DNA of 64,000 nt from a virus, in the IMG/VR virus record IMGVR_UViG_3300043425_000861; one strand, written 5' to 3'. Under the pieces are notes generated by a model, which searched no databases, was not told the DNA's origin, and saw nothing but the letters and a program-made list of their open reading frames with translations. The position numbers and the translations under genes are program-made. Shown here piece by piece: positions 26,212 to 39,589 of this stretch. Within the stretch, counting starts at the first letter, position 1. Each line of letters starts with the position of its first letter.

Positions 26212-27861
26212 TTACTCGACGATTAAATCAACTTTATTTCCTTTCGCATCAACAGCATCAGATAAAACAAAGTAGAATAAACCGGCGGTATTTGTTAAAG
26301 TTGTTTTTGGTGTGAATACCAACTTATACGGAGTTCCTGTTTTAATTCTCGCAGTTTTCAATTGGTCAATAGAACCGAAAGTTAATCTACCGTCTTTATG
26401 TGTTGAAAAGTTTGTTATTGTTGAACCCGCGTCAAATATCACATTATCCAATGTTAATTTTGATTCGTCATAACTCATAATAACTTCCAATCCTGCCAAT
26501 CCTTCTTTTGTTAAATTTGTGGTTAATACAACTTTGCCATTTTCCAAAGTAGATGTTACACTCAACTTAGCAGTTTCTACCGCTTCAGTTTTATATGACA
26601 TTGATTGTGTTGATATAGTCGACATAGTACCAATTGAATTTACTGAGTTTGTGTATTGTCCGGCACTTATTCTACTAGCAATTACTGCTGGGTCTGATGA
26701 ATGTGACCAGTTTAAGTCACCACCCCACGCGTACACCGCATACACTTCTTTAACAGGAGTATCAATTGTAACTTTATTTTTAATGTTACCATCTAACCAA
26801 TCTTGATTTAATAAACCACTATGCCATCTCCAAGAAGTTGATGTTTGTGTTGGTATAAATGCATTTGTGGAAACATCTTGACCCATAACATATGCGAATG
26901 AATAATATGAATCCGATTCATTAAATACGTTATCGTTTTTAGTGATATTACCAACCTTCTTCTCTAAATTTGGATAAGTGAAGAAGTTCGCAGTTCCTGA
27001 TATATCTGTTTGTGAATGTCCTAAAAACGCTTTGTATGCGTCTGAAACAGTAATGACATTATTCATCCAAGCTTTTTGTGAGGCTGGACTAACAAACACA
27101 CCCAAACTATCACCAACCTTTACTTGTGTTGTAAATAACGCTTCACCTGTTGCATCTAAAGGTAATTGAGCAATCGGTTGTTGTGACCAATCAATAGTAC
27201 CACTACCATCCGTTTTTAATCTCATTAATTGAACATTATGGTCGGTAATTGTATATCCTTGTGGGAATAGAACCTTTACTTTAAATTGTGACGTATTACC
27301 AAGAACACCACTTAATGATATATTTGTTGAACTTCTTGTTATTGGTGATATATTAACAGACGAATCGTTAATTGCATATGACAAATCCAATTTATGAATA
27401 TCATTATATGTGTTTTGGTCTTTTAATATAAATTTTTGAGTTGCAATATCACCATTAATTGATGCGTCAGTTCTTTGAACAGTTAATTGCCCGACATTCC
27501 AATCATTATTTACTGAATATCCCCAAGGAGTTGTGGTGTATTGTGCATATAATTGTGTTTCAGCAACATTTGGTGCCGGTGTAAACTTATAGTTATTCCA
27601 ACCTGTATAGAATGTTTGTGTTGAACTACCTTGAGTGAATACAGTACTGTTCGGTACCATAGACAACGCCTTATTATTAAAAGAATATCTCAACCAAAAA
27701 TATCTTGGTGTTGTTGTTCCTCTAGTTACAGTGTACTTAACTGTTAATGTATCACCAACCTTTAATCCCGTTGTTGGGGTGATAGTTTGATTAACCGTTA
27801 ATTGTGCAAATGATGAAATGGTGGATAATAAAAATACACCGATAATTAATAATTTTTTCAT
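26212..27861 (-). CDS. Secreted protein with cohesin-like domains, paralogous C-terminal half to 23919..26210
   Basis: Signal peptide; LKVGDTLTV; shared segments TVSDAYKAF / TVSDVFIAF and GDLNWSHS / GDVNLSHS; LAGLEVIMSYD. Confidence 0.7.
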   Translation of the reverse strand: MKKLLIIGVFLLSTISSFAQLTVNQTITPTTGLKVGDTLTVKYTVTRGTTTPRYFWLRYSFNNKALSMVPNSTVFTQGSSTQTFYTGWNNYKFTPAPNVAETQLYAQYTTTPWGYSVNNDWNVGQLTVQRTDASINGDIATQKFILKDQNTYNDIHKLDLSYAINDSSVNISPITRSSTNISLSGVLGNTSQFKVKVLFPQGYTITDHNVQLMRLKTDGSGTIDWSQQPIAQLPLDATGEALFTTQVKVGDSLGVFVSPASQKAWMNNVITVSDAYKAFLGHSQTDISGTANFFTYPNLEKKVGNITKNDNVFNESDSYYSFAYVMGQDVSTNAFIPTQTSTSWRWHSGLLNQDWLDGNIKNKVTIDTPVKEVYAVYAWGGDLNWSHSSDPAVIASRISAGQYTNSVNSIGTMSTISTQSMSYKTEAVETAKLSVTSTLENGKVVLTTNLTKEGLAGLEVIMSYDESKLTLDNVIFDAGSTITNFSTHKDGRLTFGSIDQLKTARIKTGTPYKLVFTPKTTLTNTAGLFYFVLSDAVDAKGNKVDLIVE

Positions 27862-27863
27862 TT

Positions 27864-28397
27864 TTACTTTTTAATTGAAAACACTTTATTTATTAAAGAT
27901 TCACACGTCTTTTTAATCGCGGATGAAAGAGCTTGTTGATTTATTTTATCACTACCTTCATCGGTTATTAATGTTGATGTCGAGATTTCTGAGCTTGATT
28001 CTTCAGCAACAGCCTCTTTGATTTTCTTACCTTCTTTAGTTGTTAATTTACCTCTCATTACCACCAAAGTTTCTTCTTTGTCTGAATGAAATACTGAGAT
28101 ATTAGTCTTGGTTTTATTAACATCAAAAAATAAGATTTCAGCACTAAAAATCAAATCAGCCTTAGTGATGTCTTCGACAATTAGATAATCCTTATCTTGT
28201 AATATTTCTTGGAAAATGTTTTTAGCACCAAAAGCTAAATTTCGATTATTAGCCATTTTACCAACAATCACTTTGTTCTCTACTTTATCCACGTAGACGG
28301 ATTTTGGGTCCTCAATCGGTTGAAAAATCCTTACCAATAAGCCCACGAATAGGATGTACAGTATCGGTAAGAGCGATACGTTTAGTCTGTTTGTCAT
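27864..28397 (-). CDS. Membrane-anchored envelope protein (first gene of the surface operon)
   Basis: N-terminal TM segment; C-terminal INQQALSSAIKKTC echoes FNQSTISIATKKAL of the CsgG-like ORF. Start placed 3 nt after a TATTTATT box. Confidence 0.65.
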   Translation of the reverse strand: MTNRLNVSLLPILYILFVGLLVRIFQPIEDPKSVYVDKVENKVIVGKMANNRNLAFGAKNIFQEILQDKDYLIVEDITKADLIFSAEILFFDVNKTKTNISVFHSDKEETLVVMRGKLTTKEGKKIKEAVAEESSSEISTSTLITDEGSDKINQQALSSAIKKTCESLINKVFSIKK

Positions 28398-28525
28398 ACT
28401 AATAAATATGACAATTGTCACTATTAGTATAAACTTTATATTATTTTAATTTGGCAATATTGCCGTGTTTTTAGATGTTAAAAAAATATTTTTAAACTTT
28501 TATTGATTATATACATATTTATTAG

Positions 28526-28533
28526 TATCTTTG
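28526..28533 (+). promoter_or_regulatory. Promoter for leader 1 / tRNA array 1
   Basis: TATCTTTG (TAnnTTTG), with a TATTTATT box at 28516-28523 just upstream. Confidence 0.65.
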
Positions 28534-28562
28534 TAAAAAGAAAAAACATTAAATAAAATTCA

Positions 28563-28661
28563 ATGAGACAATTTACACATATTATGTCGTTTACAATCTG
28601 TTCAAAATGGGCGGATGAGCGTTCTATGTCTATATGTCTCGATGATACTGATGTTGGTTAA
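28563..28661 (+). CDS. Leader peptide 1 (32 aa, MRQFTHIMSFTICSKWADERSMSICLDDTDVG), candidate attenuator sensor for tRNA array 1
   Basis: Lies between a promoter and a terminator; codons 6-20 include a codon for every elongator tRNA of array 1. Confidence 0.8.
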   Translation: MRQFTHIMSFTICSKWADERSMSICLDDTDVG

Positions 28662-28684
28662 ATTAGTTTAACTTAAAATATTAG

Positions 28685-28718
28685 AAAACCTCGGGACTTT
28701 AAAATCTCGAGGTTTTTT
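28685..28718 (+). terminator. Attenuator terminator 1
   Basis: AAAACCTCGGGA-CTTTAAAA-TCTCGAGGTTTTTT, 6 nt before tRNA-Ala. Confidence 0.85.
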
Positions 28719-28724
28719 GTTTAT

Positions 28725-28797
28725 GGGCCGGATGTCAATGGCAGACCACCTGATTTGCAATCAGAGTGAAAGGGTTCGATTCCCTACGTGTCCACCA
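28725..28797 (+). tRNA. tRNA-Ala(TGC)
   Basis: Anticodon loop TTTGCAA, G3-U70 pair, encoded CCA. Confidence 0.85.
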
Positions 28798-28803
28798 CCC
28801 CCG

Positions 28804-28854
28804 AGTTTTGGAGCTGGTACCTCCTTTTACCCGAATTGAAATTAAAAACTACCA
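28804..28854 (+). pseudogene. Minimal tRNA-like element / tRNA-Thr(GGT) remnant
   Basis: AGTTTT/AAAACT stem followed by ACCA; GGAG-CTGGTAC-CTCC anticodon-like arm; no D-arm or canonical T-arm. Confidence 0.35.
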
Positions 28855-28859
28855 CAAAT

Positions 28860-28932
28860 TCTTAGGTAACTCAATGGTGAGAGTACCTCGCTGATACCGA
28901 GGAGGTTGGTAGTTCGAATCTACCCCTAAGAA
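28860..28932 (+). tRNA. tRNA-Ile(GAT)
   Basis: CCTCG-CTGATAC-CGAGG; TTCGAAT T-loop. Confidence 0.9.
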
Positions 28933-28937
28933 CATAA

Positions 28938-29010
28938 GGAGATGAAGCTAACTTAGTAGAAGCATCGGACTGAAAATCCGAAGGAGTTGGAGCGTAACCA
29001 ACTATCTCCA
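28938..29010 (+). tRNA. tRNA-Phe(GAA), atypical T-loop
   Basis: TCGGA-CTGAAAA-TCCGA; T-loop AGCGTAA. Confidence 0.85.
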
Positions 29011-29072
29011 CAATAAAGTAAAAAATGCTTAATAAAGTGAACAACTTTATTATACAAAAACAACTTTATTAT

Positions 29073-29146
29073 GACCTCTTAGCTCAGTTGGTTAGAGCAC
29101 CTCACTTTTAATGAGGGAGTCCCGCGTTCGAGTCGCGGAGGGGTCA
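29073..29146 (+). tRNA. tRNA-Lys(TTT)
   Basis: CCTCA-CTTTTAA-TGAGG. Confidence 0.93.
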
Positions 29147-29224
29147 CAATACGAATCAACCGGGTGGCTGAAACCTAACTAGTAGTGGAGAATACCCACA
29201 ACCCGGTCAATGTTCGTATTAACT

Positions 29225-29295
29225 ACGGGTGTAGTTCAATGGTAGAATTATGGTCTCCAAAACCATCGATGGGAGTTCGAATCTCTCCACCCGTG
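29225..29295 (+). tRNA. tRNA-Trp(CCA)
   Basis: ATGGT-CTCCAAA-ACCAT. Confidence 0.93.
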
Positions 29296-29363
29296 CAAAT
29301 TATATCTAAAAACATATAAAAATGAAAAAACAATTTGACAAGCATTAGTTAAACTAATGCAAA

Positions 29364-29561
29364 ATGAAAAACAAAGAAGAACGAGTAAAACAAATGAATT
29401 CAATTTACAATTATTGTTTCATTTGTAATAAAAGAAATGGTAGTTGGTATTATGATTGTCACCCATCAAGTTGGTATGTAAAACGACACGGAAATGGAAA
29501 AATCGTAAGACAAAGAGAGTGTAGAAGTTGGAAACACAACAGAAAAACCCAATGGAAATAA
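29364..29561 (+). CDS. Small basic Cys/Trp-containing protein within tRNA array 1
   Basis: 65 aa with CxxC and a C-terminal WKHNRKTQWK. Confidence 0.6.
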   Translation: MKNKEERVKQMNSIYNYCFICNKRNGSWYYDCHPSSWYVKRHGNGKIVRQRECRSWKHNRKTQWK

Positions 29562-29564
29562 TTT

Positions 29565-29636
29565 GGTCTCTTGGTGTAACGGATAGCACGGAACACTACG
29601 AATGTTTTAGTAAAGGTTCGAGTCCTTTAGAGACCT
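29565..29636 (+). tRNA. tRNA-Arg(ACG)
   Basis: GAACA-CTACGAA-TGTTT. Confidence 0.9.
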
Positions 29637-29695
29637 CTGTTCACAAAATATCGTTGTTCACGGTTCGTGAACAGAGAACAAACGTGAACAAATAA

Positions 29696-29768
29696 GTCAG
29701 GTTGGCCGAGTTGGTTTAGGTGACGGTCTGCAAAACCGTTTACATTGGTTCGAATCCAATACTTGACT
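29696..29768 (+). tRNA. tRNA-Cys(GCA)
   Basis: ACGGT-CTGCAAA-ACCGT; U73 discriminator. Confidence 0.92.
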
Positions 29769-29770
29769 CT

Positions 29771-29846
29771 GTGATAGATGTTCGTATGGTAGGACCTAAG
29801 ATTGTGGCTCTTAGATTAGCGGGTTCGAATCCCGTCTATCACCCCA
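29771..29846 (+). tRNA. tRNA-His(GTG)
   Basis: TAAGA-TTGTGGC-TCTTA; G-1:C73 pair; encoded CCA. Confidence 0.9.
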
Positions 29847-29849
29847 TAT

Positions 29850-29919
29850 TGCGGGAAGGTTAGGTAACCCGCCAGGTCTCATAAGCCTGTGCATCCGAGT
29901 TCGATTCTCGGTCCCGCAA
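29850..29919 (+). tRNA. tRNA-Met(CAT), probably elongator; short D-arm
   Basis: CAGGT-CTCATAA-GCCTG; positions 1 and 72 pair (T-A). Confidence 0.75.
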
Positions 29920-29961
29920 CAAAAAAGATTAAAAATATTTTGTGATTTCACAATTTATTAT

Positions 29962-29969
29962 TATCTTTG
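29962..29969 (+). promoter_or_regulatory. Internal TAnnTTTG promoter before tRNA-fMet
   Basis: TATCTTTG with TTTG at 29939-29942, 19 bp upstream. Confidence 0.55.
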
Positions 29970-29979
29970 TAAAACAAAT

Positions 29980-30051
29980 CGCGAGATAGAGCAGCGGTAG
30001 CTCGGAAGGCTCATAACCTTTAGGTCGGGGGTTCGATTCCCTCTCTCGCAA
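29980..30051 (+). tRNA. Initiator tRNA-fMet(CAT)
   Basis: C1:A72 mismatch; GAAGG-CTCATAA-CCTTT. Confidence 0.88.
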
Positions 30052-30053
30052 CA

Positions 30054-30315
30054 ATAGGTGAAGACTGTGGTGGAAGCCCACGGTATATGAATCCCTAAAA
30101 GCTGTCTTGATTCGCGGTATCAAAGCGGTGCGGGTAGAGTTACATATAAGTCGGGAGTAATTAACCAATTGACGAAAATGTATCCACAGATATGGAGATA
30201 TATCTGTTATGATGTTCAAATGCGAACGAAAAACCTATAACTTATTGAGACTAACTCAACGAGGACTTTGTCAACCAGAGCAATGACTTGGATGGTGCAA
30301 CTTAAGGTGAGTTAG
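30054..30315 (+). ncRNA. Unidentified structured RNA(s) between tRNA-fMet and tRNA-Asp
   Basis: Two modules closed by ATAGGT/ACCTAT (30054-30238) and CTAACTCA/TGAGTTAG (30251-30315), with internal hairpins and raised GC. Confidence 0.5.
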
Positions 30316-30325
30316 AATCAAAATT

Positions 30326-30399
30326 GGAGCGGTAGTTCAGTTGGTTAGAATGCCTGCCTGTCACGCAGGAGGTCGCGGGTTCGAGTCCCGTCCGTTCCG
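30326..30399 (+). tRNA. tRNA-Asp(GTC)
   Basis: CCTGC-CTGTCAC-GCAGG. Confidence 0.95.
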
Positions 30400-30406
30400 C
30401 AAATTT

Positions 30407-30492
30407 GGAGAGATGGCAGAGTTGGTCTATCGCGTCGGTCTTGAAAACCGAAGTTCTGAAAGGGACCGTGGGTTCGAATCCTACTCTCTCCG
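30407..30492 (+). tRNA. tRNA-Ser(TGA)
   Basis: TCGGT-CTTGAAA-ACCGA; long variable arm. Confidence 0.93.
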
Positions 30493-30497
30493 CACTT

Positions 30498-30569
30498 GCT
30501 CGGTTCGACTAGTGGTTAGGTCGCATCCCTTTCACGGATGTAGCACGGGTTCGAATCCCGTACCGAGTA
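30498..30569 (+). tRNA. tRNA-Glu(TTC)
   Basis: CATCC-CTTTCAC-GGATG. Confidence 0.93.
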
Positions 30570-30626
30570 CAAAATAATTTTTAACTATTTACACTTTTTT
30601 ATAATTTGTGTATACTTATTAAAACG

Positions 30627-30734
30627 ATGAAGAATATAAATAACATATTGACGAGTACAAGACCACTTACAAATGGTAATGGGTATGGTGTGCAACCGTT
30701 ATGTTACTTATGTTCGGATATCAATAAAGGATAA
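30627..30734 (+). CDS. Leader peptide 2 (35 aa, MKNINNILTSTRPLTNGNGYGVQPLCYLCSDINKG), candidate attenuator sensor for tRNA array 2
   Basis: Codons 3-25 all fall in codon boxes served by array-2 tRNAs; a terminator follows. Confidence 0.8.
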   Translation: MKNINNILTSTRPLTNGNGYGVQPLCYLCSDINKG

Positions 30735-30761
30735 TAGAAAATTATTAAAACTTATATCGAG

Positions 30762-30791
30762 ACCCGAACACAAAAAATGTTCGGGTTTTTT
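30762..30791 (+). terminator. Attenuator terminator 2
   Basis: ACCCGAACA-CAAAAAA-TGTTCGGGT followed by a T run. Confidence 0.85.
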
Positions 30792-30852
30792 GTTTTGTAA
30801 TTTTTTATCTCTATATTTGAAATAGGTTCTTTGACATATTGGAATAACGAAT

Positions 30853-30936
30853 GCCGGAGTGTTGGAATGGTAGACAAGACAGACTTAAAATCTGTTGAGC
30901 TGAAAGCTCGTGTGGGTTCGAGTCCCATCTCCGGTA
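30853..30936 (+). tRNA. tRNA-Leu(TAA)
   Basis: ACAGA-CTTAAAA-TCTGT; variable arm. Confidence 0.93.
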
Positions 30937-30976
30937 CAAACACTATCGTTCTTTGAAGATAAAGGAGAAACATAAT

Positions 30977-31225
30977 ATGGATATATTATCATTTATTTTA
31001 GGAATGTCTATAGTTGTGGTTATTGCGGTTGCAGTAGTTGCGGTTATAGCCTTTGTTAAGGTGAACAGACTAAACAAAGAGATTGAATCGATTCACACAA
31101 TTTATTCGGGTGAATTTGAAAGGGTTAATAGAGATAGAACAGATTCGGAAAGACAGATTTATTCTGTGTTAGATTCTCGACTTGATAAACTTGAAAGTAA
31201 AATAACAAATAGCCGTAAGGCATAA
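30977..31225 (+). CDS. Single-TM coiled-coil protein inside tRNA array 2
   Basis: MDILSFILGMSIVVVIAVAVVAVIAF...; flanked by an inverted repeat. Confidence 0.7.
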   Translation: MDILSFILGMSIVVVIAVAVVAVIAFVKVNRLNKEIESIHTIYSGEFERVNRDRTDSERQIYSVLDSRLDKLESKITNSRKA

Positions 31226-31263
31226 AAATTAAATAAAACTTTCAAAGACGATAGTGTTAATTT

Positions 31264-31335
31264 GGGCCCATAGTTAAAGGGATATAACTTCTCACTTCTA
31301 ATGAGATGTTCGTGGTTCGAGTCCACGTGGGCCTA
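31264..31335 (+). tRNA. tRNA-Arg(TCT)
   Basis: TCTCA-CTTCTAA-TGAGA. Confidence 0.92.
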
Positions 31336-31336
31336 C

Positions 31337-31476
31337 AAAGATAATGGTCTGATGTTATAATTGTTGTCGACTAACATTATAACTACTTAAACAGACAGCA
31401 CCCTCTGCCGATGCATCGTAAAACTATTACTAAGCAGTTAAGATTGGAACGAAACGGGTATTCCAACATTATCTTT
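31337..31476 (+). ncRNA. Unidentified structured RNA between tRNA-Arg and tRNA-Pro
   Basis: 10-bp closing stem AAAGATAATG/CATTATCTTT; internal GTCTG/CAGAC, GTTATAAT/ATTATAAC and TTGGAA/TTCCAA stems. Confidence 0.5.
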
Positions 31477-31480
31477 ATTT

Positions 31481-31554
31481 TGGGAATTAGCGTAGTCCGG
31501 TATCGCGCTTGGTTTGGGACCAAGAGGTCGTCAGTTCGAATCTGGCATTCCCAA
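31481..31554 (+). tRNA. tRNA-Pro(TGG)
   Basis: CTTGG-TTTGGGA-CCAAG. Confidence 0.92.
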
Positions 31555-31561
31555 CAAAAAT

Positions 31562-31633
31562 GCTGATGTAGCTCAACGGCAGAGCAATTGACTGTTAATC
31601 AATAGGTTGAGATATCGTAATTCTCCATCAGCG
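31562..31633 (+). tRNA. tRNA-Asn(GTT), atypical T-loop
   Basis: ATTGA-CTGTTAA-TCAAT; T-loop ATCGTAA. Confidence 0.87.
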
Positions 31634-31638
31634 CAAAT

Positions 31639-31720
31639 GGCCAAGTGGTGGAACGGTATACACGTATGTTTTAGAAACATATGTCAGAACGGCGTGAGAG
31701 TTCGAATCTCTCCTTGGTCA
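31639..31720 (+). tRNA. tRNA-Leu(TAG)
   Basis: TATGT-TTTAGAA-ACATA; variable arm. Confidence 0.9.
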
Positions 31721-31766
31721 CGGAAAACGGTTTGTATGTATACGTTAGGTTAGGAATGTACAGAAT

Positions 31767-31847
31767 GGGAGTATCGCATAGCGGCAATTGCAGAAGACTG
31801 TAAATCTTCCCTCATCGAGTTCAGTGGTTCGAGTCCACTTACTCCCA
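31767..31847 (+). tRNA. tRNA-Tyr(GTA)
   Basis: GAAGA-CTGTAAA-TCTTC; variable arm. Confidence 0.93.
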
Positions 31848-31858
31848 CAAAATAAAAT

Positions 31859-32395
31859 ATGATGAGAACACTAAAAGAACTTATAAAGGAGATTAAATCT
31901 CCCGAATACAAACAAAAACAAATTGAAGAACATCAAAAGTATCTTGATGAGATATCGATGGATTATCAACTAGGTTACTACGTTGGTGAATATATTGTTA
32001 ATCGTTATCTCCCAACGTTATCGACAGATATGATTCAATCAAGAAATGTTATTGAAGTATCTGAAGAGGATTCTATTGAAAATAATAGGTTAGATAGAGA
32101 ATGGTATTTAACAACGAAGTATCAGAATGATTGGAATGGAGAAGAAGATGGTAATAAAGAAAAGTGGGATTTATACCACCAGCATAATAAAATGTTGGAA
32201 CAAAAATACCTCCCTCAAAAATTAGAATGTCATTTAGGTTTAATTAAGTTTAATGACGAAAAAGAATTTAAAGAAGGGTTACGTTCATCGTTATGGGATT
32301 GTGATATGTGTTCTTATAACATTGATGTTGAAAATATAAAAATTGTAAATGATATGGAAATTGGTTTCACCATCATAACATTTCAATTAGTTTAA
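31859..32395 (+). CDS. Hypothetical protein inside tRNA array 2
   Basis: 178-aa ORF between tRNA-Tyr and tRNA-Ile2. Confidence 0.75.
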   Translation: MMRTLKELIKEIKSPEYKQKQIEEHQKYLDEISMDYQLGYYVGEYIVNRYLPTLSTDMIQSRNVIEVSEEDSIENNRLDREWYLTTKYQNDWNGEEDGNKEKWDLYHQHNKMLEQKYLPQKLECHLGLIKFNDEKEFKEGLRSSLWDCDMCSYNIDVENIKIVNDMEIGFTIITFQLV

Positions 32396-32402
32396 AAAGT
32401 TT

Positions 32403-32476
32403 GGACTTGTAGCTCAGTTGGTTAGAGCACTTCACTCATAATGAATAGGTCCCTGGTTCGAGACCAGGCTGGTCCA
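32403..32476 (+). tRNA. tRNA-Ile2(CAT), lysidine type, reads ATA
   Basis: CTCATAA loop; the GGAC...GGTCCA acceptor and TAGCTCAGTTGGTTAGAGC D-arm resemble bacterial Ile2. Two other CAT tRNAs already cover Met and fMet. Confidence 0.78.
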
Positions 32477-32529
32477 CAACAGGTCGTTCCTCCCCAATAA
32501 AACGTTGGTTGCAACATAATAGCAAAAAC

Positions 32530-32603
32530 AGAAGATTAGCTCAGTTGGTTAGAGCATTTGGTTTACATCCAAAGGGTCATAGGTTCGAATCCTATATCTT
32601 CTA
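32530..32603 (+). tRNA. tRNA-Val(TAC)
   Basis: TTTGG-TTTACAT-CCAAA. Confidence 0.92.
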
Positions 32604-32608
32604 CAATA

Positions 32609-32680
32609 GCTCGGTTAGTTCAACCGGTAGAATAAATGATTTGTAATCATTAGACAACAGTTCGAATCTGTTACTGAGCT
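32609..32680 (+). tRNA. tRNA-Thr(TGT)
   Basis: AATGA-TTTGTAA-TCATT. Confidence 0.9.
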
Positions 32681-32687
32681 CAAACAA

Positions 32688-32760
32688 GCGGATATAGCTC
32701 AATTGGTAGAGTGCGTTCCTTCCAAGTACGAAGTTGCAGGTTCGAGCCCTGTTATCCGCT
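32688..32760 (+). tRNA. tRNA-Gly(TCC)
   Basis: GCGGATA acceptor, CTTCCAA loop, U73 discriminator. Confidence 0.92.
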
Positions 32761-32765
32761 CACAT

Positions 32766-32836
32766 TGTCCTTTAGTATAACGGCAGTACAGGTGGTTTTG
32801 GTCCATCTAGTTGGGGTTCGAATCCCTGAGGGACAA
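32766..32836 (+). tRNA. tRNA-Gln(TTG)
   Basis: GGTGG-TTTTGGT-CCATC; T1-A72 pair. Confidence 0.9.
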
Positions 32837-32843
32837 CAAAACA

Positions 32844-32929
32844 GGAGAGTTACCCAAGTTGGTGAAGGGGGCAGTTTGCTAAACTGTTAGGTCGTTCGCG
32901 GCGCAAGGGTTCGAGTCCCTTACTCTCCG
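32844..32929 (+). tRNA. tRNA-Ser(GCT)
   Basis: GCAGT-TTGCTAA-ACTGT; long variable arm; G73. Confidence 0.92.
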
Positions 32930-32970
32930 CTCAATGTATAAACCAATAATTATAATAAAATGAAAATGTA

Positions 32971-33432
32971 ATGAAAAAATTCAAAACTCTCCACGGAACT
33001 CCAATTCCAGATGTTGTAGAATACATCAGAGAGTACATCTCAACGAGAGAGAATGTAGAAATTCTCATAGGTTCCGACTCACAAAGTTATTCCAATAGAA
33101 AAACAATTTATGGTGTGGTTGTGGCATTATATACAAAAGGAAAGGGCGCTCACGTTTTATGTACACGTGAAACATTACCTATGGAATATAACACAGCATC
33201 AAGATTGTTGGGTGAAGTGTGGAAATCGTTAGAGGTGGCAGAATTTTTGAAAGATAATGGTTTACCAAAACCTACTTGGATTGATATTGATTTAAATCCT
33301 GACCCAAAATATAAATCAAATGCAACGCTTAGACAAGCTGTTGGTTTGGTTGAAGGTATGGGTTATAAAGTTAGATATAAACACGTAGGTGCGATGATGA
33401 CTTACGCAGCAAATCACTTAGTTAGAATCTGA
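32971..33432 (+). CDS. RNase H-like protein (YkuK/DUF458 type)
   Basis: ILIGSDSQ...RLLGEVWKSLEVA...IDIDLN...AANH pattern. Confidence 0.75.
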   Translation: MKKFKTLHGTPIPDVVEYIREYISTRENVEILIGSDSQSYSNRKTIYGVVVALYTKGKGAHVLCTRETLPMEYNTASRLLGEVWKSLEVAEFLKDNGLPKPTWIDIDLNPDPKYKSNATLRQAVGLVEGMGYKVRYKHVGAMMTYAANHLVRI

Positions 33433-33864
33433 CGATTCCTTAGGTCCGTATAAAATAAAATAACTTCCGGTTGGTACTTCAACAAGAGGACCAACCGGTA
33501 ATTCAATTGTTGATAGAATTCTTCTGTATTTTGCGGTTTTGTTTCTATTCATAGAACCAACTCTTAAATCACCATATTCAATTGACCATTGTCTTAGTTT
33601 ATTGGACAATCTTTTCCAATTACGAGCAATGTCAATCATTTGGTGTCCGATGGCCCTATCTCTTTGAGCGTGTGGAGTCGTGAAATCTTCTTCGTCAGAT
33701 GTTAAAGCAACATCATAAAGTGAATCATAGTGAAATGTTTGATTTTTTAGAAGAAACATTTTGTAAGGACCTGCATCTATTCTGTCGATATCTTCCATAC
33801 CCATTGAACGGAGTTTTCTCAACTCATCTTCAATCATTTCAAGAAGTATATCTGTAAAGTTCAT
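33418..33864 (-). CDS. Hypothetical protein
   Basis: 148-aa ORF with TATTTATA upstream. Confidence 0.7.
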   Translation of the reverse strand: MNFTDILLEMIEDELRKLRSMGMEDIDRIDAGPYKMFLLKNQTFHYDSLYDVALTSDEEDFTTPHAQRDRAIGHQMIDIARNWKRLSNKLRQWSIEYGDLRVGSMNRNKTAKYRRILSTIELPVGPLVEVPTGSYFILYGPKESSDSN

Positions 33865-33920
33865 TAAAGTATTTTTTTATAAATATTTGAAAATACCAAT
33901 TTATTGTTTTATATTATACT

Positions 33921-34277
33921 ATGTTAAAACAACAGATATTATATCTTACATATTCAATACTTTTGTTCCTATTAGGTTCATTTGGTCATTGGTATATAAT
34001 GTATTGGCAATTTAGGTTACCTAATTGGGTTAAAACTCCTTGGCCATATCTAATATCAATTGTTTGTACCTTCATTTGGATAACAGCATCTCATTATGGT
34101 GTGAAAGCATTTAATGGTGAAATGTGGAGTAATAGATTTTTGTTTTTTGTTACAGGTATCTTTGTGGCTGCGGTGTTATATCCATATCACTTCGGTCAAC
34201 CATTTACAATGAAAACTATGGTTCAGTTATTATTAGCAACTACCATTGTTTTAATATCACTTTTTTGGAAAAATTAA
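33921..34277 (+). CDS. Four-TM small membrane protein
   Basis: Four hydrophobic helices; SMR/DMT-like size. Confidence 0.7.
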   Translation: MLKQQILYLTYSILLFLLGSFGHWYIMYWQFRLPNWVKTPWPYLISIVCTFIWITASHYGVKAFNGEMWSNRFLFFVTGIFVAAVLYPYHFGQPFTMKTMVQLLLATTIVLISLFWKN

Positions 34278-34288
34278 ATTTAGATAAT

Positions 34289-34522
34289 ATGAAATGCATT
34301 CAAGCAATTAAAGAAACAAAATCCTATAAGTTAGGTGAAATTCGTAGAACTGATGATATCGATGCAGACCAAAAGGTTGCAAGTGGTGTATGGAAGTTTA
34401 TTCCTAAGTCAGAATGGAAGGGTGTTAAAAAAACACAATCGGTTGGTGTTCAACACGATATGGGAGGTTCTTACGAAGTTAAGACTGAAAATAAAAAAAA
34501 TTCAAAAAAAGTTTCAAAATAA
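34289..34522 (+). CDS. Small basic hypothetical protein
   Basis: MKCIQAIKETKSYKLGEIRR...WKFIPKSEWK; start moved to the ATG after the upstream stop. Confidence 0.65.
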   Translation: MKCIQAIKETKSYKLGEIRRTDDIDADQKVASGVWKFIPKSEWKGVKKTQSVGVQHDMGGSYEVKTENKKNSKKVSK

Positions 34523-34554
34523 TTTGACTTTTAAAAAAAGTCATTGTATATTTG
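34523..34554 (+). promoter_or_regulatory. Bacteroidota sigma-A-type promoter for the large ncRNA
   Basis: TTTG (34523-34526), 20-bp spacer, TATATTTG (34547-34554). Confidence 0.75.
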
Positions 34555-34561
34555 TAAAAGA

Positions 34562-35400
34562 AACAAGAAATAGTTCTTTGATTTAAAAATATTGGCCGCC
34601 TATGGTCGATTAAAATAAACCACGAAAGTGGGATAAAGTGACAAACCTTTGGTTGAGGTAAGTTGCGGTTTCAGTAATGGAACTCGAGTAGGCAAGTGGA
34701 ATATCATCGAACCTTAAGTACTGAGGGTGACACTTTAGGGAAAGTGGTTTGATGACCAAGCAATCCGAGTTGTTTGGTTGAGGTGGGAACACCAACAAGA
34801 ATAATCCATAGAGTTATTGTAAGAAATATAGTCATCCAACTATACAATTACGTGATTCAATATGATGGGAATCTTAAAACCGAAAGGTATGGTGAAGTAC
34901 GAGTGGTGTCGTTATCATCCTTTATCGGACTCTACCAAGAGTTTGATTTTGAAGGGGTCCAAAAATATGGTGGCAGGGATGTTACAGAGAGTAGTTTAGT
35001 ATCGAGTCGCTCAAAAGGTGGCTTGGCTAGGTGACGAACCACTACTTTCCAAATTCGGATAACTAAATTTTGTTAATTTTGGTTTAACAACTTAAAATCA
35101 TACAAGAAGAAGTGTTCGTCAGTCGTTGTAGACAGGTGGCTACATAGTCGTGAGGGGTTCACGGCCACAAAGGGTCTCAAGCCCGATGTGATTTTTAAGA
35201 AAGTTCTCTAAACCCGCAAGGTTGAATCAGGGAGGCATCTTTGATGAGTAATGAGTATTAAAAGAGTATATAACGACTCAAGGATTGGTTAATCTAATTG
35301 ACCGCCGCTGATTGGTACTACTCAAAAGGTAGTGGATACGGGAAGAATCAAATAATGTCCCCAAGTCAATCTCAAAATGGTGTAATCTCAGCCCTTTTTT
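34562..35400 (+). ncRNA. Giant structured ncRNA, GOLLD-like (~830 nt)
   Basis: GC-enriched with no credible ORF, has its own promoter, dense in hairpins (ACC-GAAA-GGT, CC-GCAA-GG, repeated CTCAAAAG-type loops), ends GTAATCTCAGCCC plus a T run, and lies near the tRNA arrays. Confidence 0.72.
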
Positions 35401-35535
35401 ATTTTCTTTGTTTATTAAAACAAAGTGGTGGAATTACCTTATTTTTTCTATGAAAACCGAAGGCCCCGAAAACTAAGTCAGATTTTTTCTGACTTTTTTT
35501 TTGCTTTATCAATAATTTTATTTATATTATCTATT

Positions 35536-36291
35536 ATGAGAATAGTTTGTATATCCGATACACATAGTCTTCATAAAAAAATGGAGGATTATGGAACATT
35601 ACCAAAAGGTGATGTACTAATTCACGCGGGTGATTGTACGAATGTTGGTAAACCTCACGAAGTAAAAGAGTTCGTTGAATGGTTTATGGGTATTGAAGGA
35701 TTTGATACTAAAATTTTCATTGCAGGTAATCACGATTTTGCGTTTGAACAACATAGATATCCTCATCATAAAGGTGAATATGATTGGTATTTCAATTTAA
35801 TAAATGAAGAGAATTTATCACAATCTAATGTTACCTATTTGGAGGATAGTCAGTTGATTATTGAATCACCGGAATTCTCAAGACCAATTAAATTTTGGGG
35901 TAGTCCTTGGCAACCTGAATTTTACAATTGGGCGTTCAACTTACCAAGACTTGGTGATGAATTAAAAAAATATTGGTCAATGATACCTGACGATACCGAT
36001 GTATTAATAACACACGGACCACCTAATGAAGCTAGAGATTTTGTTAGTAATTGGAGACAAGGTGATGTTAACGTTGGTTGTGAATTGTTAAGATATAGAG
36101 TCGATGAAATAAATCCTTTAGTTCACGTGTTTGGTCATATCCACGGAGCTTATGGTGCTGCACATATTAAAGATACTTTGTTTGTGAATGCATCAATTTG
36201 TAATGATAGATATGCACCATCAAATAAACCACTCGTAGTAGAATTGACAGAATACGATGGAGAAATAGTAGCAAATTATGTCGAAGAGTAA
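35536..36291 (+). CDS. Calcineurin-like metallophosphoesterase
   Basis: DTH, HAGD, GNHD, THGPP and GHIH motifs; start placed at MRIVCISDTH. Confidence 0.9.
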   Translation: MRIVCISDTHSLHKKMEDYGTLPKGDVLIHAGDCTNVGKPHEVKEFVEWFMGIEGFDTKIFIAGNHDFAFEQHRYPHHKGEYDWYFNLINEENLSQSNVTYLEDSQLIIESPEFSRPIKFWGSPWQPEFYNWAFNLPRLGDELKKYWSMIPDDTDVLITHGPPNEARDFVSNWRQGDVNVGCELLRYRVDEINPLVHVFGHIHGAYGAAHIKDTLFVNASICNDRYAPSNKPLVVELTEYDGEIVANYVEE

Positions 36292-37825
36292 CCAACCTGT
36301 AAGTGTTGTTATATCAACACGAAAAATCGATGATGAGTATTTGAAACACGTTGAGAAAATGTTTTCTCACCCAAAAACACAAATACTTGTTTATGAAAAT
36401 GATGGAGTTTCATCATTAGCTGAAATTTATAACGATGGATTGAAAGATTCAATCTACGACGTTGTAGTTTTTATGCACGATGATTTAATAATTGAAACCA
36501 AATGTATTGGTGAAAAAATTATTAAATTATTTGATAAAAATCCTGAGTTTGGTATTATTGGAATTGCAGGTACCACTGATTTGGTGACAGGTAGATGGTG
36601 GGAAATTAAGAAATCAATGGTAGGTGAAGTTTATCACGAAAATGGTGGTAAAAGATGGTTATCAAAGTATTCGAAAGAATCATATTCTGATATATTAAAA
36701 GATGTTGTCTGTGTTGATGGTTTATTCTTTATGGTTCATAAAAATAGAATTAAAGATACATTCGACCAAGATTTTAAAGGATTCCATTTTTATGAAATTC
36801 CATTCTGTTTATCAAATTACACAAAAGGTGTAAAAATTGGTGTTACAACTAAATTTAACATTGTACATAAATCTGTTGGTCAGACAAATGAACAATGGGA
36901 AGAAAATAAAAAACAATTTGAAGAGAAGTTCAAAGACGTATTACCAATACGTTTAACAAACAATAAAACGTTTGATGAAAAATTAAACTACGATAAAGAT
37001 AAAATCGGTGTCGGTATTGTGACATACGATGCTCAACATAGAATCGTACAATCTGCACCTACAGTACCTTCTTGGGTAAAACATTTTGTTATTGTTAACG
37101 ATGGTACACCGTATGATGAAAATTTATATCCAAAAAATGCACATATTATTCAACACGAAACTAATATGTCTGTTGGATATGCAAAAAATTCAGCAATTCA
37201 ATATCTAATGGACCAAGGATGTGAGCATATTTTCATTATGGAAGATGATATTCTAATTAAAGATGAAAATGTCTTTGACCAATACATTAAAACATCAGTT
37301 TTAACGGGAATTAAACATTTAAATTATGCATTACAAGGACCCGCAAATAAAAAGGGTTCCAAAGGATTTGATTCATTAGAGGAGAGAGCGAAATTAAATA
37401 ACTTAACCGAACCAAACCCAAGACAAATAGTAACATATCCCGATGGTGTGGAGGTTGCATTGTACCCTAATTCTGTTGGTTCGTTCTCTTATTACAATAG
37501 AGAAGTTATTGAAAAAATTGGGTTATTTGATAAGATTTATAAAAATGCTTGGGAACACGTTGACCACACGTTAGAAGCATATAAAAATGGATTTACAACA
37601 CCTTATTGGTGGTTTGCAGATATTAACAAATCTTGGGATTATATTGAGGATATTGAAAATAGTATTGAAAATTCAACAATTGCAAGGTCAGAAACTTGGA
37701 AACAAAATTATAAAAGAGGTTTAGAACATTTCACTAAGAAGCACAAATTTGCACCTACAATGATACCTGATTTAGAACCAACAAAAGTAAGTCAGGTCTT
37801 AAATACCCTTTACCAATTTAGATAA
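36278..37825 (+). CDS. Tandem two-domain GT-A glycosyltransferase (GT2-like)
   Basis: VVFMHDD and VDGLF in domain 1; IVNDGT, AKNSAI, FIMEDD and WEHVD in domain 2. Confidence 0.85.
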   Translation: MSKSNQPVSVVISTRKIDDEYLKHVEKMFSHPKTQILVYENDGVSSLAEIYNDGLKDSIYDVVVFMHDDLIIETKCIGEKIIKLFDKNPEFGIIGIAGTTDLVTGRWWEIKKSMVGEVYHENGGKRWLSKYSKESYSDILKDVVCVDGLFFMVHKNRIKDTFDQDFKGFHFYEIPFCLSNYTKGVKIGVTTKFNIVHKSVGQTNEQWEENKKQFEEKFKDVLPIRLTNNKTFDEKLNYDKDKIGVGIVTYDAQHRIVQSAPTVPSWVKHFVIVNDGTPYDENLYPKNAHIIQHETNMSVGYAKNSAIQYLMDQGCEHIFIMEDDILIKDENVFDQYIKTSVLTGIKHLNYALQGPANKKGSKGFDSLEERAKLNNLTEPNPRQIVTYPDGVEVALYPNSVGSFSYYNREVIEKIGLFDKIYKNAWEHVDHTLEAYKNGFTTPYWWFADINKSWDYIEDIENSIENSTIARSETWKQNYKRGLEHFTKKHKFAPTMIPDLEPTKVSQVLNTLYQFR

Positions 37826-37852
37826 TATTTATTTATATAAAAACACACACTT

Positions 37853-38155
37853 ATGATGACAGTTATTTTAGTTTTAGTGGCATTAGCAGTAGCAGCAGGT
37901 GCAACATTCTTCCTTATGAAAACGGGTAAAATCGAAGATAAGGACAATAACAATATCCCTGACGTAATCGAAGACAAAATCGAGGAAGCTAAGGAAGTTG
38001 TTAAAGAAGTAAAAGAAAAAACAAAAAGAGTAGTTGAAGAAACTAAGGACGTTGTTAAAGCTGCTAAAGAGGTTGTTAAACAAACAAAGGACGTAGTAAA
38101 CGCAGCAAAAGGTTCAGGTTCTCGTAAAGGTAGAAAACCGGCAGCAAAGAAATAA
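37853..38155 (+). CDS. Membrane-anchored protein with amphipathic K/E/V repeats
   Basis: N-terminal TM segment, DKDNNNIPD, and AKEVVKE repeats. Confidence 0.75.
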   Translation: MMTVILVLVALAVAAGATFFLMKTGKIEDKDNNNIPDVIEDKIEEAKEVVKEVKEKTKRVVEETKDVVKAAKEVVKQTKDVVNAAKGSGSRKGRKPAAKK

Positions 38156-38239
38156 TTGACCACCAAAATATAGAATTATGGGTTAAAATTAGTTTTTTAA
38201 CCCTTTTTTATCTATATTTGTATTAGTTCTTTTATTTAT

Positions 38240-38630
38240 GGGGGTGTCTGGTATTGATTTCAGGTATCAGGGATAAATGGCACGTAGTCAGAATTCATCT
38301 ATGACTTAAATCCACGGTGAAAAATTTTAAGCGGCAACGTTTACAACAATATGGAAGTAGCAGGTTTACTTGCAACTTCTAAAGTAGCAGCCTAACTAAG
38401 TTAGACTCCTATCTCGGGTCGGTCAGGACATATACCTAGGAACAGAAGTCCACTGAAACGGGTCACAGGTCAGAGCTCGTTTAAAATAACTCTGAGACCA
38501 GGTTGTTTGTTAGTTTCGTTCCCACTTATATGAAACAAACTATTTGTCGGTTGAGAACCAATTGAATAAACGTGTAGTCATTTATTGTTGAACAGGAAAG
38601 ACACGGGTTCGACTCCCGTCACCTCCACCA
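38240..38630 (+). ncRNA. ssrA: tmRNA
   Basis: GGGGGTG/CACCTCC-ACCA acceptor with G3-U70, T-arm GGGTTCGACTCCC, tag frame 38333-38395 reading GNVYNNMEVAGLLATSKVAA*, and a TATATTTG promoter element at 38213. Confidence 0.93.
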
Positions 38631-38644
38631 AAAATTAAACCCAT

Positions 38645-39589
38645 CTATATGATGGGTTTTTTTGTTTCAAGTAATTCTATAAATGTATTAGCTAATTCTT
38701 TATGTCCATTTCTACTATAATGAATATCGGGTATGTTACCGTTAGTTTCCTCATTAATAGTTTCGTAATTATAGTACGGTATAAACAATTTAAAACATTC
38801 TTTTTTATGATTGATTGAGTTATACTCAATACAATTAAAAGTTTGATAGAATGGTCCTAAAATGTCTAACGGTGCTAATTCAACATTAATACCAAATACT
38901 CTTTTACCACTATTCACTAATGACTTAATCTCATCCATATTAAATGGTTTAGCTAAATCAAGTAACAAATCACAACTCCTTCCAATCGCATTTTTAACAT
39001 CAATATCAATATTTTTCCAAGACCTTGCCATCATTACATTTTTATGTCTAAGATTATTTTCTGACCATATATTATCAACAATTGTACTTGACGGTAAACA
39101 CCAACTCCAATGATATACTATGTTATTTTTTAACAATTCATTTATAATTTTAACAAATTGTTCTAATTCTTTCCAATAGATATTGTATGAATCTCTATTA
39201 ATTGCAATTTCTTGTGTGGTTCTCAAATCAACATCGTCATTTTGTTTTGGGTGTGGGGTATTTGGTAAGATGTCAATGTACCTATTTTGATGATTAGCAA
39301 TTCTAAATCTATTTATCGCTGTCCAACCGAAAATTACAATATCACCCTGTGATATGTTTTTTTTATTATCAAAAAATGTATCAAATATTGTATAATTTGA
39401 ACATCCACCAATTGCGTGATTGTGTAAATCGTAATCGAAATGATTTGCAATTAATTCTGTGTAATTTTCAGGAACCTCACCAATATAGTCCATATACTTG
39501 TTTCCCCAAGCTGAACCGCCATTTCTATGTGATTTGAATGTTTGAGTAAAAGAATCACCAAACGTATGAAGTTTGACTTTATTTAACAT
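38645..39589 (-). CDS. SGNH/GDSL-like hydrolase-fold protein
   Basis: FGDSF, NHAIGGCSN and C-terminal DIHYSRNGH. Confidence 0.7.
   Translation of the reverse strand: MLNKVKLHTFGDSFTQTFKSHRNGGSAWGNKYMDYIGEVPENYTELIANHFDYDLHNHAIGGCSNYTIFDTFFDNKKNISQGDIVIFGWTAINRFRIANHQNRYIDILPNTPHPKQNDDVDLRTTQEIAINRDSYNIYWKELEQFVKIINELLKNNIVYHWSWCLPSSTIVDNIWSENNLRHKNVMMARSWKNIDIDVKNAIGRSCDLLLDLAKPFNMDEIKSLVNSGKRVFGINVELAPLDILGPFYQTFNCIEYNSINHKKECFKLFIPYYNYETINEETNGNIPDIHYSRNGHKELANTFIELLETKKPII

Follow-up and report, generated by a model that had tools for sequence, protein, structure and literature searches.

Leader-peptide attenuators, as described for trpL, hisL, leuL, pheL, thrL, ilvL and pheM-pheST in E. 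coli and Salmonella, place a short upstream open reading frame (ORF) with control codons ahead of RNA that folds into one of two mutually exclusive structures, a 2:3 antiterminator or a 3:4 terminator. In these systems the position of the ribosome is the switch and the supply of charged tRNA is the signal, and the E. coli examples include the multivalent leaders thrL and ilvL. In bacilli, His leaders found before hisZ/hisS* are attenuators of synthetase genes (PMC2965389). Here, we describe two cassettes of like design in a 64,000-nucleotide stretch of phage DNA (IMGVR_UViG_3300043425_000861, "the window" in what follows), in each of which a leader ORF and an intrinsic terminator precede an array of tRNA genes. 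From the sequence, we propose that each cassette would act as a ribosome-stalling transcription attenuator of the trp/his type that places tRNA genes under negative feedback from tRNA supply, a reading to which we assign a probability of about 0.85.

The phage cassettes are set apart from classical operon leaders because their control codons mostly stand singly instead of in runs and because the genes downstream encode tRNAs, not enzymes of amino-acid synthesis, transport or aminoacylation, so that the output would be the very molecule that is sensed. Whereas classical attenuators deal with one to three specificities, the phage leaders sample 12 and up to about 24; their match extends to the level of isoacceptors, they are phage-borne, and they are rewritten as the arrays rearrange. 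T-box riboswitches also make a tRNA-responsive choice between terminator and antiterminator in a 5' leader, but they bind a single uncharged tRNA directly through a specifier loop, without translation; an Rfam search of 27500-39500 returned no T-box (stem I, specifier loop, T-box bulge) or riboswitch at E<=1. The Anabaena trn operon and the related L-arrays resemble our locus in forming a long tRNA array, which in Anabaena is silent and induced by translational stress. Control there is exerted at initiation by the ribbon-helix-helix repressor TrcR, and a codon-matched leader is not mentioned in the abstracts on these arrays (PMC8421152, PMC10272220).

The window holds 25 tRNA genes, all on the + strand between 28725 and 32930 and lying in two blocks (24 were called by ARAGORN, and a divergent Ala-TGC by Rfam). 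Array 1 (28725..30570, +) comprises Ala-TGC, Ile-GAT, Phe, Lys-TTT, Trp, Arg-ACG, Cys, His, Met, fMet, Asp, Ser-TGA and Glu, and array 2 (30853..32930, +) comprises Leu-TAA, Arg-TCT, Pro, Asn, Leu-TAG, Tyr, Ile2-CAT, Val, Thr, Gly-TCC, Gln and Ser-GCT. Leader ORF 1 (28563..28661, +; 32 codons) has a sensor at about codons 2-21 that samples Ala, Ile-ATY, Phe, Lys, Trp, Arg-CGN, Cys, His, Met, Asp, Ser-TCN and Glu. The sensor of leader ORF 2 (30627..30734, +; 35 codons), at about codons 3-25, samples Leu-TTR, Arg-AGR, Pro, Asn, Leu-CTN, Tyr, Ile-ATA, Val, Thr, Gly, Gln and Ser-AGY. The control codons of these short 5' ORFs, whose start, frame and stop are conserved, are in this way tied to the function of the genes downstream. 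Most tRNAs are sampled by one codon per leader, and two Thr codons also occur in leader 1, although tRNA-Thr belongs to array 2.

An initial annotation of the window had listed both arrays in this order, on which ARAGORN and Rfam agree, and had placed an intrinsic terminator behind each leader, where a G+C stem and a U tract are indeed found at both. Its leader codon lists are exact, with 17 of 18 (leader 1) and 23 of 23 codons (leader 2) in own-array boxes and 12 specificities in each, and the split of Ser, Arg and Ile isoacceptors between the two leaders is as it claimed. The match within its sensor windows stands, but their limits had to be moved: the functional sensor ends at about codon 20-21 in leader 1 and 24-25 in leader 2, the last newly sampled specificities being Arg (codon 20) and Gln (codon 23). 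Because these windows had been picked after the fact (40/41 codons match, P=3.7e-7), we retested the whole leaders against all 2,704,156 ways of dividing 24 boxes 12/12. The association of leader codons with array membership survived this exact permutation, with 49 of 65 codons in own-array boxes (P=5.7e-5) and all 24 boxes sampled by the correct leader (P=2.9e-4). Random codons drawn at the codon usage of the window equal the match with P=3.5e-5 for leader 1 and 7.7e-5 for leader 2, as do 0 of 13,491 and 3 of 13,347 real in-frame stretches, respectively.

Related phages, represented by contigs from IMG/VR and metagenomes that reach 334 kb, carry the same arrangement. A generic detector (a hairpin with a U run and an ORF end 12-50 nt upstream) found a leader-terminator cassette before nearly every full array among them; ordinary-gene, truncated or merged-array units (e.g. 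the second unit of L043, L064, L067, L070, L029 and L191) were excluded from the statistics. Among phages with complete arrays, 61 distinct leaders of families 1 and 2 were compared; their sensors, counted from codon 2 to the fourth codon ahead of the antiterminator strand, contain 679 of the 703 array specificities. When codons are numbered from that strand, the rate of matching is 0.89-1.00 between -17 and -4 and drops to 0.25-0.52 from position 0 on, an edge that coincides with the place where a stalled ribosome would start to cover it. The ratio of nonsynonymous to synonymous polymorphism (pN/pS) in window-type leaders is 0.33-0.34 in the sensor versus 0.66-1.19 in the tail. Length differences among aligned leaders amount to whole codons, and neighbouring codons swap order while the set is kept (Ser-Thr/Thr-Ser; Glu-Arg with an inserted Ala, Thr or Lys); the gap from stop to stem is held at 25-33 nt.

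The choice among synonymous codons follows the arrays as well, in counts that come from related, non-independent sequences. For Arg, family 1 uses CGN 21 times and AGR never, versus 32 AGR and no CGN in family 2 (background, 17% CGN). Ile is encoded by ATY 44 times and ATA once in family 1, versus ATA 58 times and ATY three times in family 2 (background, 28% ATA). For Ser, the figures are 58 TCN versus 2 AGY in family 1 and 27 AGY versus 13 TCN in family 2, and both of the family-1 AGY codons lie in a phage in which Ser-GCT has moved into array 1.

If the leaders monitor the tRNAs encoded behind them, leader codons should change as tRNAs move between arrays, as the initial annotation had anticipated, and they do: 23 of 25 gained specificities have a leader codon and 26 of 36 lost specificities have none. 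Assignment of leaders to arrays over eight architectures per family gave exact P=6/40320 and 4/40320. In the L024/L030 clade, where Val and Thr moved to array 1, leader 1 gained GTG and extra Thr codons and the sensor of leader 2 lost both Val and Thr. When Asp and Ser-TGA moved to array 2 (L071), GAT and all TCN codons disappeared from leader 1 and are present in leader 2. The codons for Asp and Glu moved along with their tRNAs in L082 and L083, which may share one such move, and in L083 Gln and Ser-GCT went the opposite way, leader 1 gaining CAG and two AGT. These two phages also hold Leu-TAA and Arg-TCT in a leaderless block and have lost TTR and AGR from leader 2. Gln is missing from both array 2 and leader 2 of L015, and in L065 array and sensor have both been rebuilt. 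The rearrangements fall on separate branches of the tree of the neighbouring gene; recombination is evident, since L117 shares the neighbour protein of the window and has a different leader 2. Where the tRNAs form one merged array, a single leader of 31-53 codons precedes it, and 15 of 16 such leaders hold 18-20 amino acids. Tracking is imperfect, in that Thr is often kept in both leaders and Arg-CGN is absent from many merged ones. Mutated fMet genes were considered as the origin of the "moved" Thr-TGT genes, and this is not so. L095-L097 have at least three cassettes and duplicated tRNAs, one leader fitting a block of Leu-TTR, Arg-AGR, Cys and Ile-ATA.

The same logic is found in cultured phages whose leaders are unrelated in sequence to those of the window. 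Cellulophaga phage phi17:2 has three cassettes with leaders covering 7/7, 9/9 and 7/7 specificities (0/200,000 permutations), phi10:1 has a Trp/Ser/Tyr/Cys/Phe leader before tRNAs for Tyr, Trp, Phe, Ser and Cys (5/5), and Calle_1 has one cassette with a matching leader. Cultured phage-host pairs exist (Cellulophaga baltica with phi17:2, phi4:1 and phi10:1), making the system experimentally accessible. Run on the tRNA region of T5 and on Rhodobacter phage RcXuper, the detector returned no cassette; it needs a U-rich terminator, and GC-rich cases can escape it. A candidate cassette in a proteobacterial phage is a 44-codon ORF with a terminator 10 nt before tRNA-Arg in Pseudomonas phage Milchi (L223:18365-18543).

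An attenuator also requires a terminator ahead of the regulated genes and an antiterminator that excludes it. Intrinsic terminator 1 (28689..28718, +; stem-loop 28689-28712 and U tract) and terminator 2 (30763..30791, +; stem-loop 30763-30785 and U tract) have stems of -18.1 and -16.2 kcal/mol that start 28-29 nt after the leader stop. The antiterminator strand (region 2) of leader 1 (28636..28642, +; codons 25-27) complements the terminator 5' arm at 28691-28697, and that of leader 2 (30711..30717, +; codons 29-31) the arm at 30764-30770. A strand of 6-11 nt within the last 12 codons pairs with the terminator 5' arm in 94 of 96 units. Across 17 different stems the leader tail pairs with its own arm at a mean of -12.5 kcal/mol, versus -6.7 with foreign arms (0/100,000 permutations). 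In many lineages the sequence of the terminator arm recurs within ORF nucleotides 2-17, which can sequester region 2 in ribosome-free RNA; in the window, the putative protector strand (region 1; 28565..28570, +) is predicted to pair with region 2 in untranslated RNA. This 1:2 helix covaries in several lineages and is weak or absent in others. When the nascent RNA was folded with the ribosome footprint masked, the probability of the antiterminator, P(2:3), was 0.91-0.99 with the ribosome up to codon 20 (leader 1) or 24 (leader 2), about 0 with the ribosome beyond codon 22 or 26, and 0.2-0.33 in the untranslated leader. Prediction and covariation thus agree on an antiterminator that would be freed by a stall and hidden by a finishing ribosome.

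In the mechanism that we propose, host RNA polymerase would transcribe the leader with a ribosome following. When all sampled codons are read fast, the ribosome would reach codon 22-26 and beyond and hide the antiterminator strand, allowing the terminator to fold and transcription to end. Scarcity of a charged tRNA would create a slow codon at which the ribosome lags, 2:3 would form, and the polymerase would enter the tRNA block. In the absence of a ribosome, the weak 1:2 helix would favour termination. The new tRNAs would then remove the decoding delay and close a negative-feedback loop. The purpose is likely the replacement of tRNAs lost in infection, be it to host anticodon nucleases or to general tRNA decay, because extra tRNA does not cure amino-acid starvation and because the match is at the isoacceptor level. 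There is precedent in T5-like phages, in which tRNA-Tyr counters retron-Eco7 and tRNA-Lys counters PrrC, with expression level being important (PMC11555353), and anticodon-nuclease evasion has been proposed for phage tRNAs (PMC10264068). The tRNAs of the window would likewise replace host tRNAs destroyed by defence nucleases; unlike in T5-type phages with their strong promoter (PMC11555353), tRNA supply here looks demand-driven.

How completely the leaders govern their arrays depends on the promoters, which in turn depend on the host. The window is phage DNA (33% G+C) with matches to portal phrog_213 and terminase phrog_2; the source is a giant freshwater phage, and its relatives are jumbo phages. 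A blastn search matched individual tRNAs only and gave no close cultured relative. Shine-Dalgarno motifs are nearly absent (1 of 48 window genes), A stands at -3 in 29 of 48, and TAnnTTTG promoter boxes are present. The TAnnTTTG consensus, scarce Shine-Dalgarno motifs and A at -3 are traits of Bacteroidota (PMC6847099). The gene adjoining the arrays has bacterial homologues from Chitinophagaceae and other Bacteroidota (metagenome-assembled genomes, MAGs), and from these homologues and the promoter and translation-start traits the host looks to be a member of the Bacteroidota.

Leader 1 has a predicted promoter with a Bacteroidota-type -7 box TAnnTTTG (28526..28533, +) and a TTG 20 nt upstream, and such a box lies ahead of 29 of 31 family-1 leaders. 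Leader 2 of the window has no perfect TAnnTTTG box, which 30 of 37 relatives possess. A motif of the ATA(T/C)TTAT type occurs upstream of both, as ATATTTAT before leader 1 (28515-28522, +) and as ATACTTAT, possibly a phage promoter, before leader 2 (30612..30619, +); it lies 8-40 nt upstream of the start of 6 of 48 genes, is rare within ORFs (4 in 45 kb) and may represent a phage promoter. Terminator 1 ends 12 nt before tRNA-Ala, which leaves no room for another promoter, and Ala to Met would therefore depend on readthrough and be fully gated. A probable internal promoter (TTG-N19-TAnnTTTG; 29962..29969, +) stands before tRNA-fMet, as in 12 of 27 distinct fMet upstream regions of relatives; a separate box is plausible here, since loss of fMet would escape a sensor of elongation. 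Another probable internal promoter lies between terminator 2 and Leu-TAA (30812..30836, +), with a TTG-N19-TAnnTTTG box at 30812-30819 and, at 30826-30836, a motif that we take to resemble boxA and whose role could be to recruit antitermination of the rrn type or to mark where RNA is processed. The box recurs in 21 of 37 family-2 relatives and the boxA-like motif in 31 of 37; the latter is often seen before fMet genes as well. Relatives with shrunken arrays have deleted leader 2 and kept this site ahead of Leu-TAA, Arg-TCT and Ile2, which suggests a real basal promoter. The attenuators would add inducible output where such a promoter exists, probably for Asp, Ser, Glu and array 2. Reduced arrays (L018, L058, L019, L020, L032) keep Leu-TAA and Arg-TCT, mostly also Ile2, and are usually leaderless; as a side reading, they might be a constitutive core for TTA, AGA and ATA as opposed to the inducible full set.

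Several points weigh against the attenuator reading or narrow it. Classical attenuators use runs of control codons, and here single codons predominate. For 10 of the 36 lost specificities a codon persists, and in the L020 clade, which has lost most tRNAs, a full leader still stands before four. With a lone ribosome stalled at codons 14-15 of leader 1 or 15-20 of leader 2, 1:2 re-forms and P(2:3) falls to 0.2-0.4, so that a trailing ribosome or a steric block would be needed. When the full leader is folded to equilibrium, nearly all states contain the terminator; the switch must therefore be kinetic, and for the same reason equilibrium folding cannot decide the matter. The fMet box would probably bypass attenuator 1 for fMet, Asp, Ser-TGA and Glu, and promoters of this kind would probably feed Asp, Ser, Glu and array 2 independently of the attenuators, array 2 probably being boosted rather than strictly gated. 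The view of the initial annotation that the leaders control the arrays is thus upheld for the attenuator geometry and not for full control, given the promoter boxes before fMet and after terminator 2. Its description of each leader as a 12-input OR gate likewise holds for the codon-matched attenuator and is tentative as regards a strict OR; because most tRNAs are sampled by one codon, a leader may integrate decoding delay and not report the loss of a single tRNA.

This last consideration gives rise to a variant, compatible with the attenuator proposed above, in which the cassettes gauge general elongation speed or amino-acid starvation and readthrough needs broad slowing (ppGpp, antibiotics or ribosome shortage). 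One codon per tRNA might well be too weak a signal for single-tRNA loss, no codon box is left out by the two leaders taken together, the leaders of merged arrays sample nearly all amino acids, and general translational stress is reported to induce the Anabaena trn array (PMC8421152). Yet such a gauge would have no need for array- and isoacceptor-specific codons that are rewritten upon single-tRNA moves, or for the W/S/Y/C/F leader before the five-tRNA array of phi10:1, and we consider it possible but doubtful. That attenuators are real in the family and attenuator 2 is largely bypassed in the window seems less probable still. The promoter-like box and boxA-like motif directly after terminator 2, the leaderless Leu-TAA/Arg-TCT blocks behind such a site in L018, L058, L019 and L083, and the imperfect promoter box of leader 2 would fit a bypass; leader 2 is nevertheless intact, under purifying selection, matched 12/12 and in possession of its antiterminator, and the downstream box is absent in 16 of 37 relatives.

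Alternatives without attenuation fare worse. The pN/pS of 0.33 indicates constraint at the amino-acid level and ORF and terminator are conserved together, as would be expected if the leaders encoded small functional peptides whose mRNA the terminator merely ends; but their composition is rewritten with array content, residues swap order, synonymous choice follows the anticodons, array 1 needs readthrough of a terminator ending 12 nt before tRNA-Ala, and the antiterminator covaries, which makes this explanation very improbable. Hardly any weight, and slightly less, attaches to the idea that the leader RNA senses tRNAs without translation, by T-box-like specifier pairing or as a tRNA decoy. Codon-anticodon complementarity is the matched feature, and T-boxes do regulate through tRNA binding (PMC2879506), but no T-box or other cis-regulator matched in Rfam at E<=1, the AUG, the frame and the 25-33 nt stop-to-stem gap are conserved, and the match ends at ribosome-footprint distance from region 2. 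Finally, about half of all codons fall to each array (0.49/0.51) and the sensor windows were chosen by a reader, so a post hoc chance pattern had to be considered; it is refuted by the whole-leader P<1e-4, the covariation and the recurrence in independent phage families.

For more than 50 years it has been an open question why phages encode tRNAs (PMC10264068). A sensor of tRNA availability argues that these tRNAs are supplied on demand to replace those that are lost or limiting, and do not serve only as a supplement for codon usage. We think it somewhat better than an even prospect that the cassettes represent widespread, undescribed phage regulators, that is, programmable multi-input attenuators that would audit the charged-tRNA pool, induce the block replacing a tRNA destroyed by defence (an OR gate directed at defence and responding to single tRNAs) and be re-encoded together with their arrays. 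A literature search that had most subscription journals outside its coverage yielded no account of tRNA genes controlled by leader-peptide attenuation; the logic of classical attenuation is known, and its application to phage tRNA genes is apparently undescribed in the literature searched. The cassettes would extend this logic to non-coding RNA genes and to 12-24 inputs. Readthrough of each leader would report which tRNAs fail during infection, the leader sequence offers an independent readout of phage tRNA decoding (e.g. Ile2 versus Met), and the design is compact enough for tRNA-depletion reporters.

Some of the tRNAs merit comment. The tRNA-Ala gene (28725-28794), missed by ARAGORN, is divergent, with an irregular acceptor stem, G3:U70 and a TGC loop, and is conserved in relatives. 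Of the three CAT tRNAs, that at 29980 has a C1:A72 mismatch, from which we infer fMet; that at 32403 starts with GGAC and in relatives adjoins, or gives way to, Ile-TAT, as would suit an Ile2-like tRNA; and that at 29850-29920, which is short and whose D arm is reduced, we regard as elongator Met. Small ORFs within the arrays (29364-29561, 30977-31225 and 31859-32395, +) have no Pfam match and would be co-regulated through readthrough. The non-coding spacers 30053-30325, 29148-29224 and 31337-31480 are higher in G+C than the A+T-rich intergenic DNA near the leaders; they have no Rfam match and are possibly structured RNAs of a new type.

Directly 3' of array 2 lies an RNase H-like PF04308 gene (32971-33432, +) that accompanies tRNA arrays in most of the phage relatives, as it does in Rhodobacter phage RcXuper. 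Its bacterial homologues in Bacteroidota MAGs have no adjoining tRNA arrays, and a role of the protein in tRNA processing is possible. A phage-encoded tmRNA at 38240-38630 (+) fits, together with the tRNAs, a translation-rescue module. GOLLD RNA (34987-35394, +; 311 bits, Rfam) is found 2 kb beyond the arrays. A TAnnTTTG box and a boxA-like motif near 34547-34582, about 400 nt upstream of the start of the Rfam model, suggest that the GOLLD transcript may extend beyond the model. Near the GOLLD region of several relatives (L029:12000-12137, L030, L035, L080 and L096), there are calls of tRNAs with a CTA anticodon, resembling amber suppressors.

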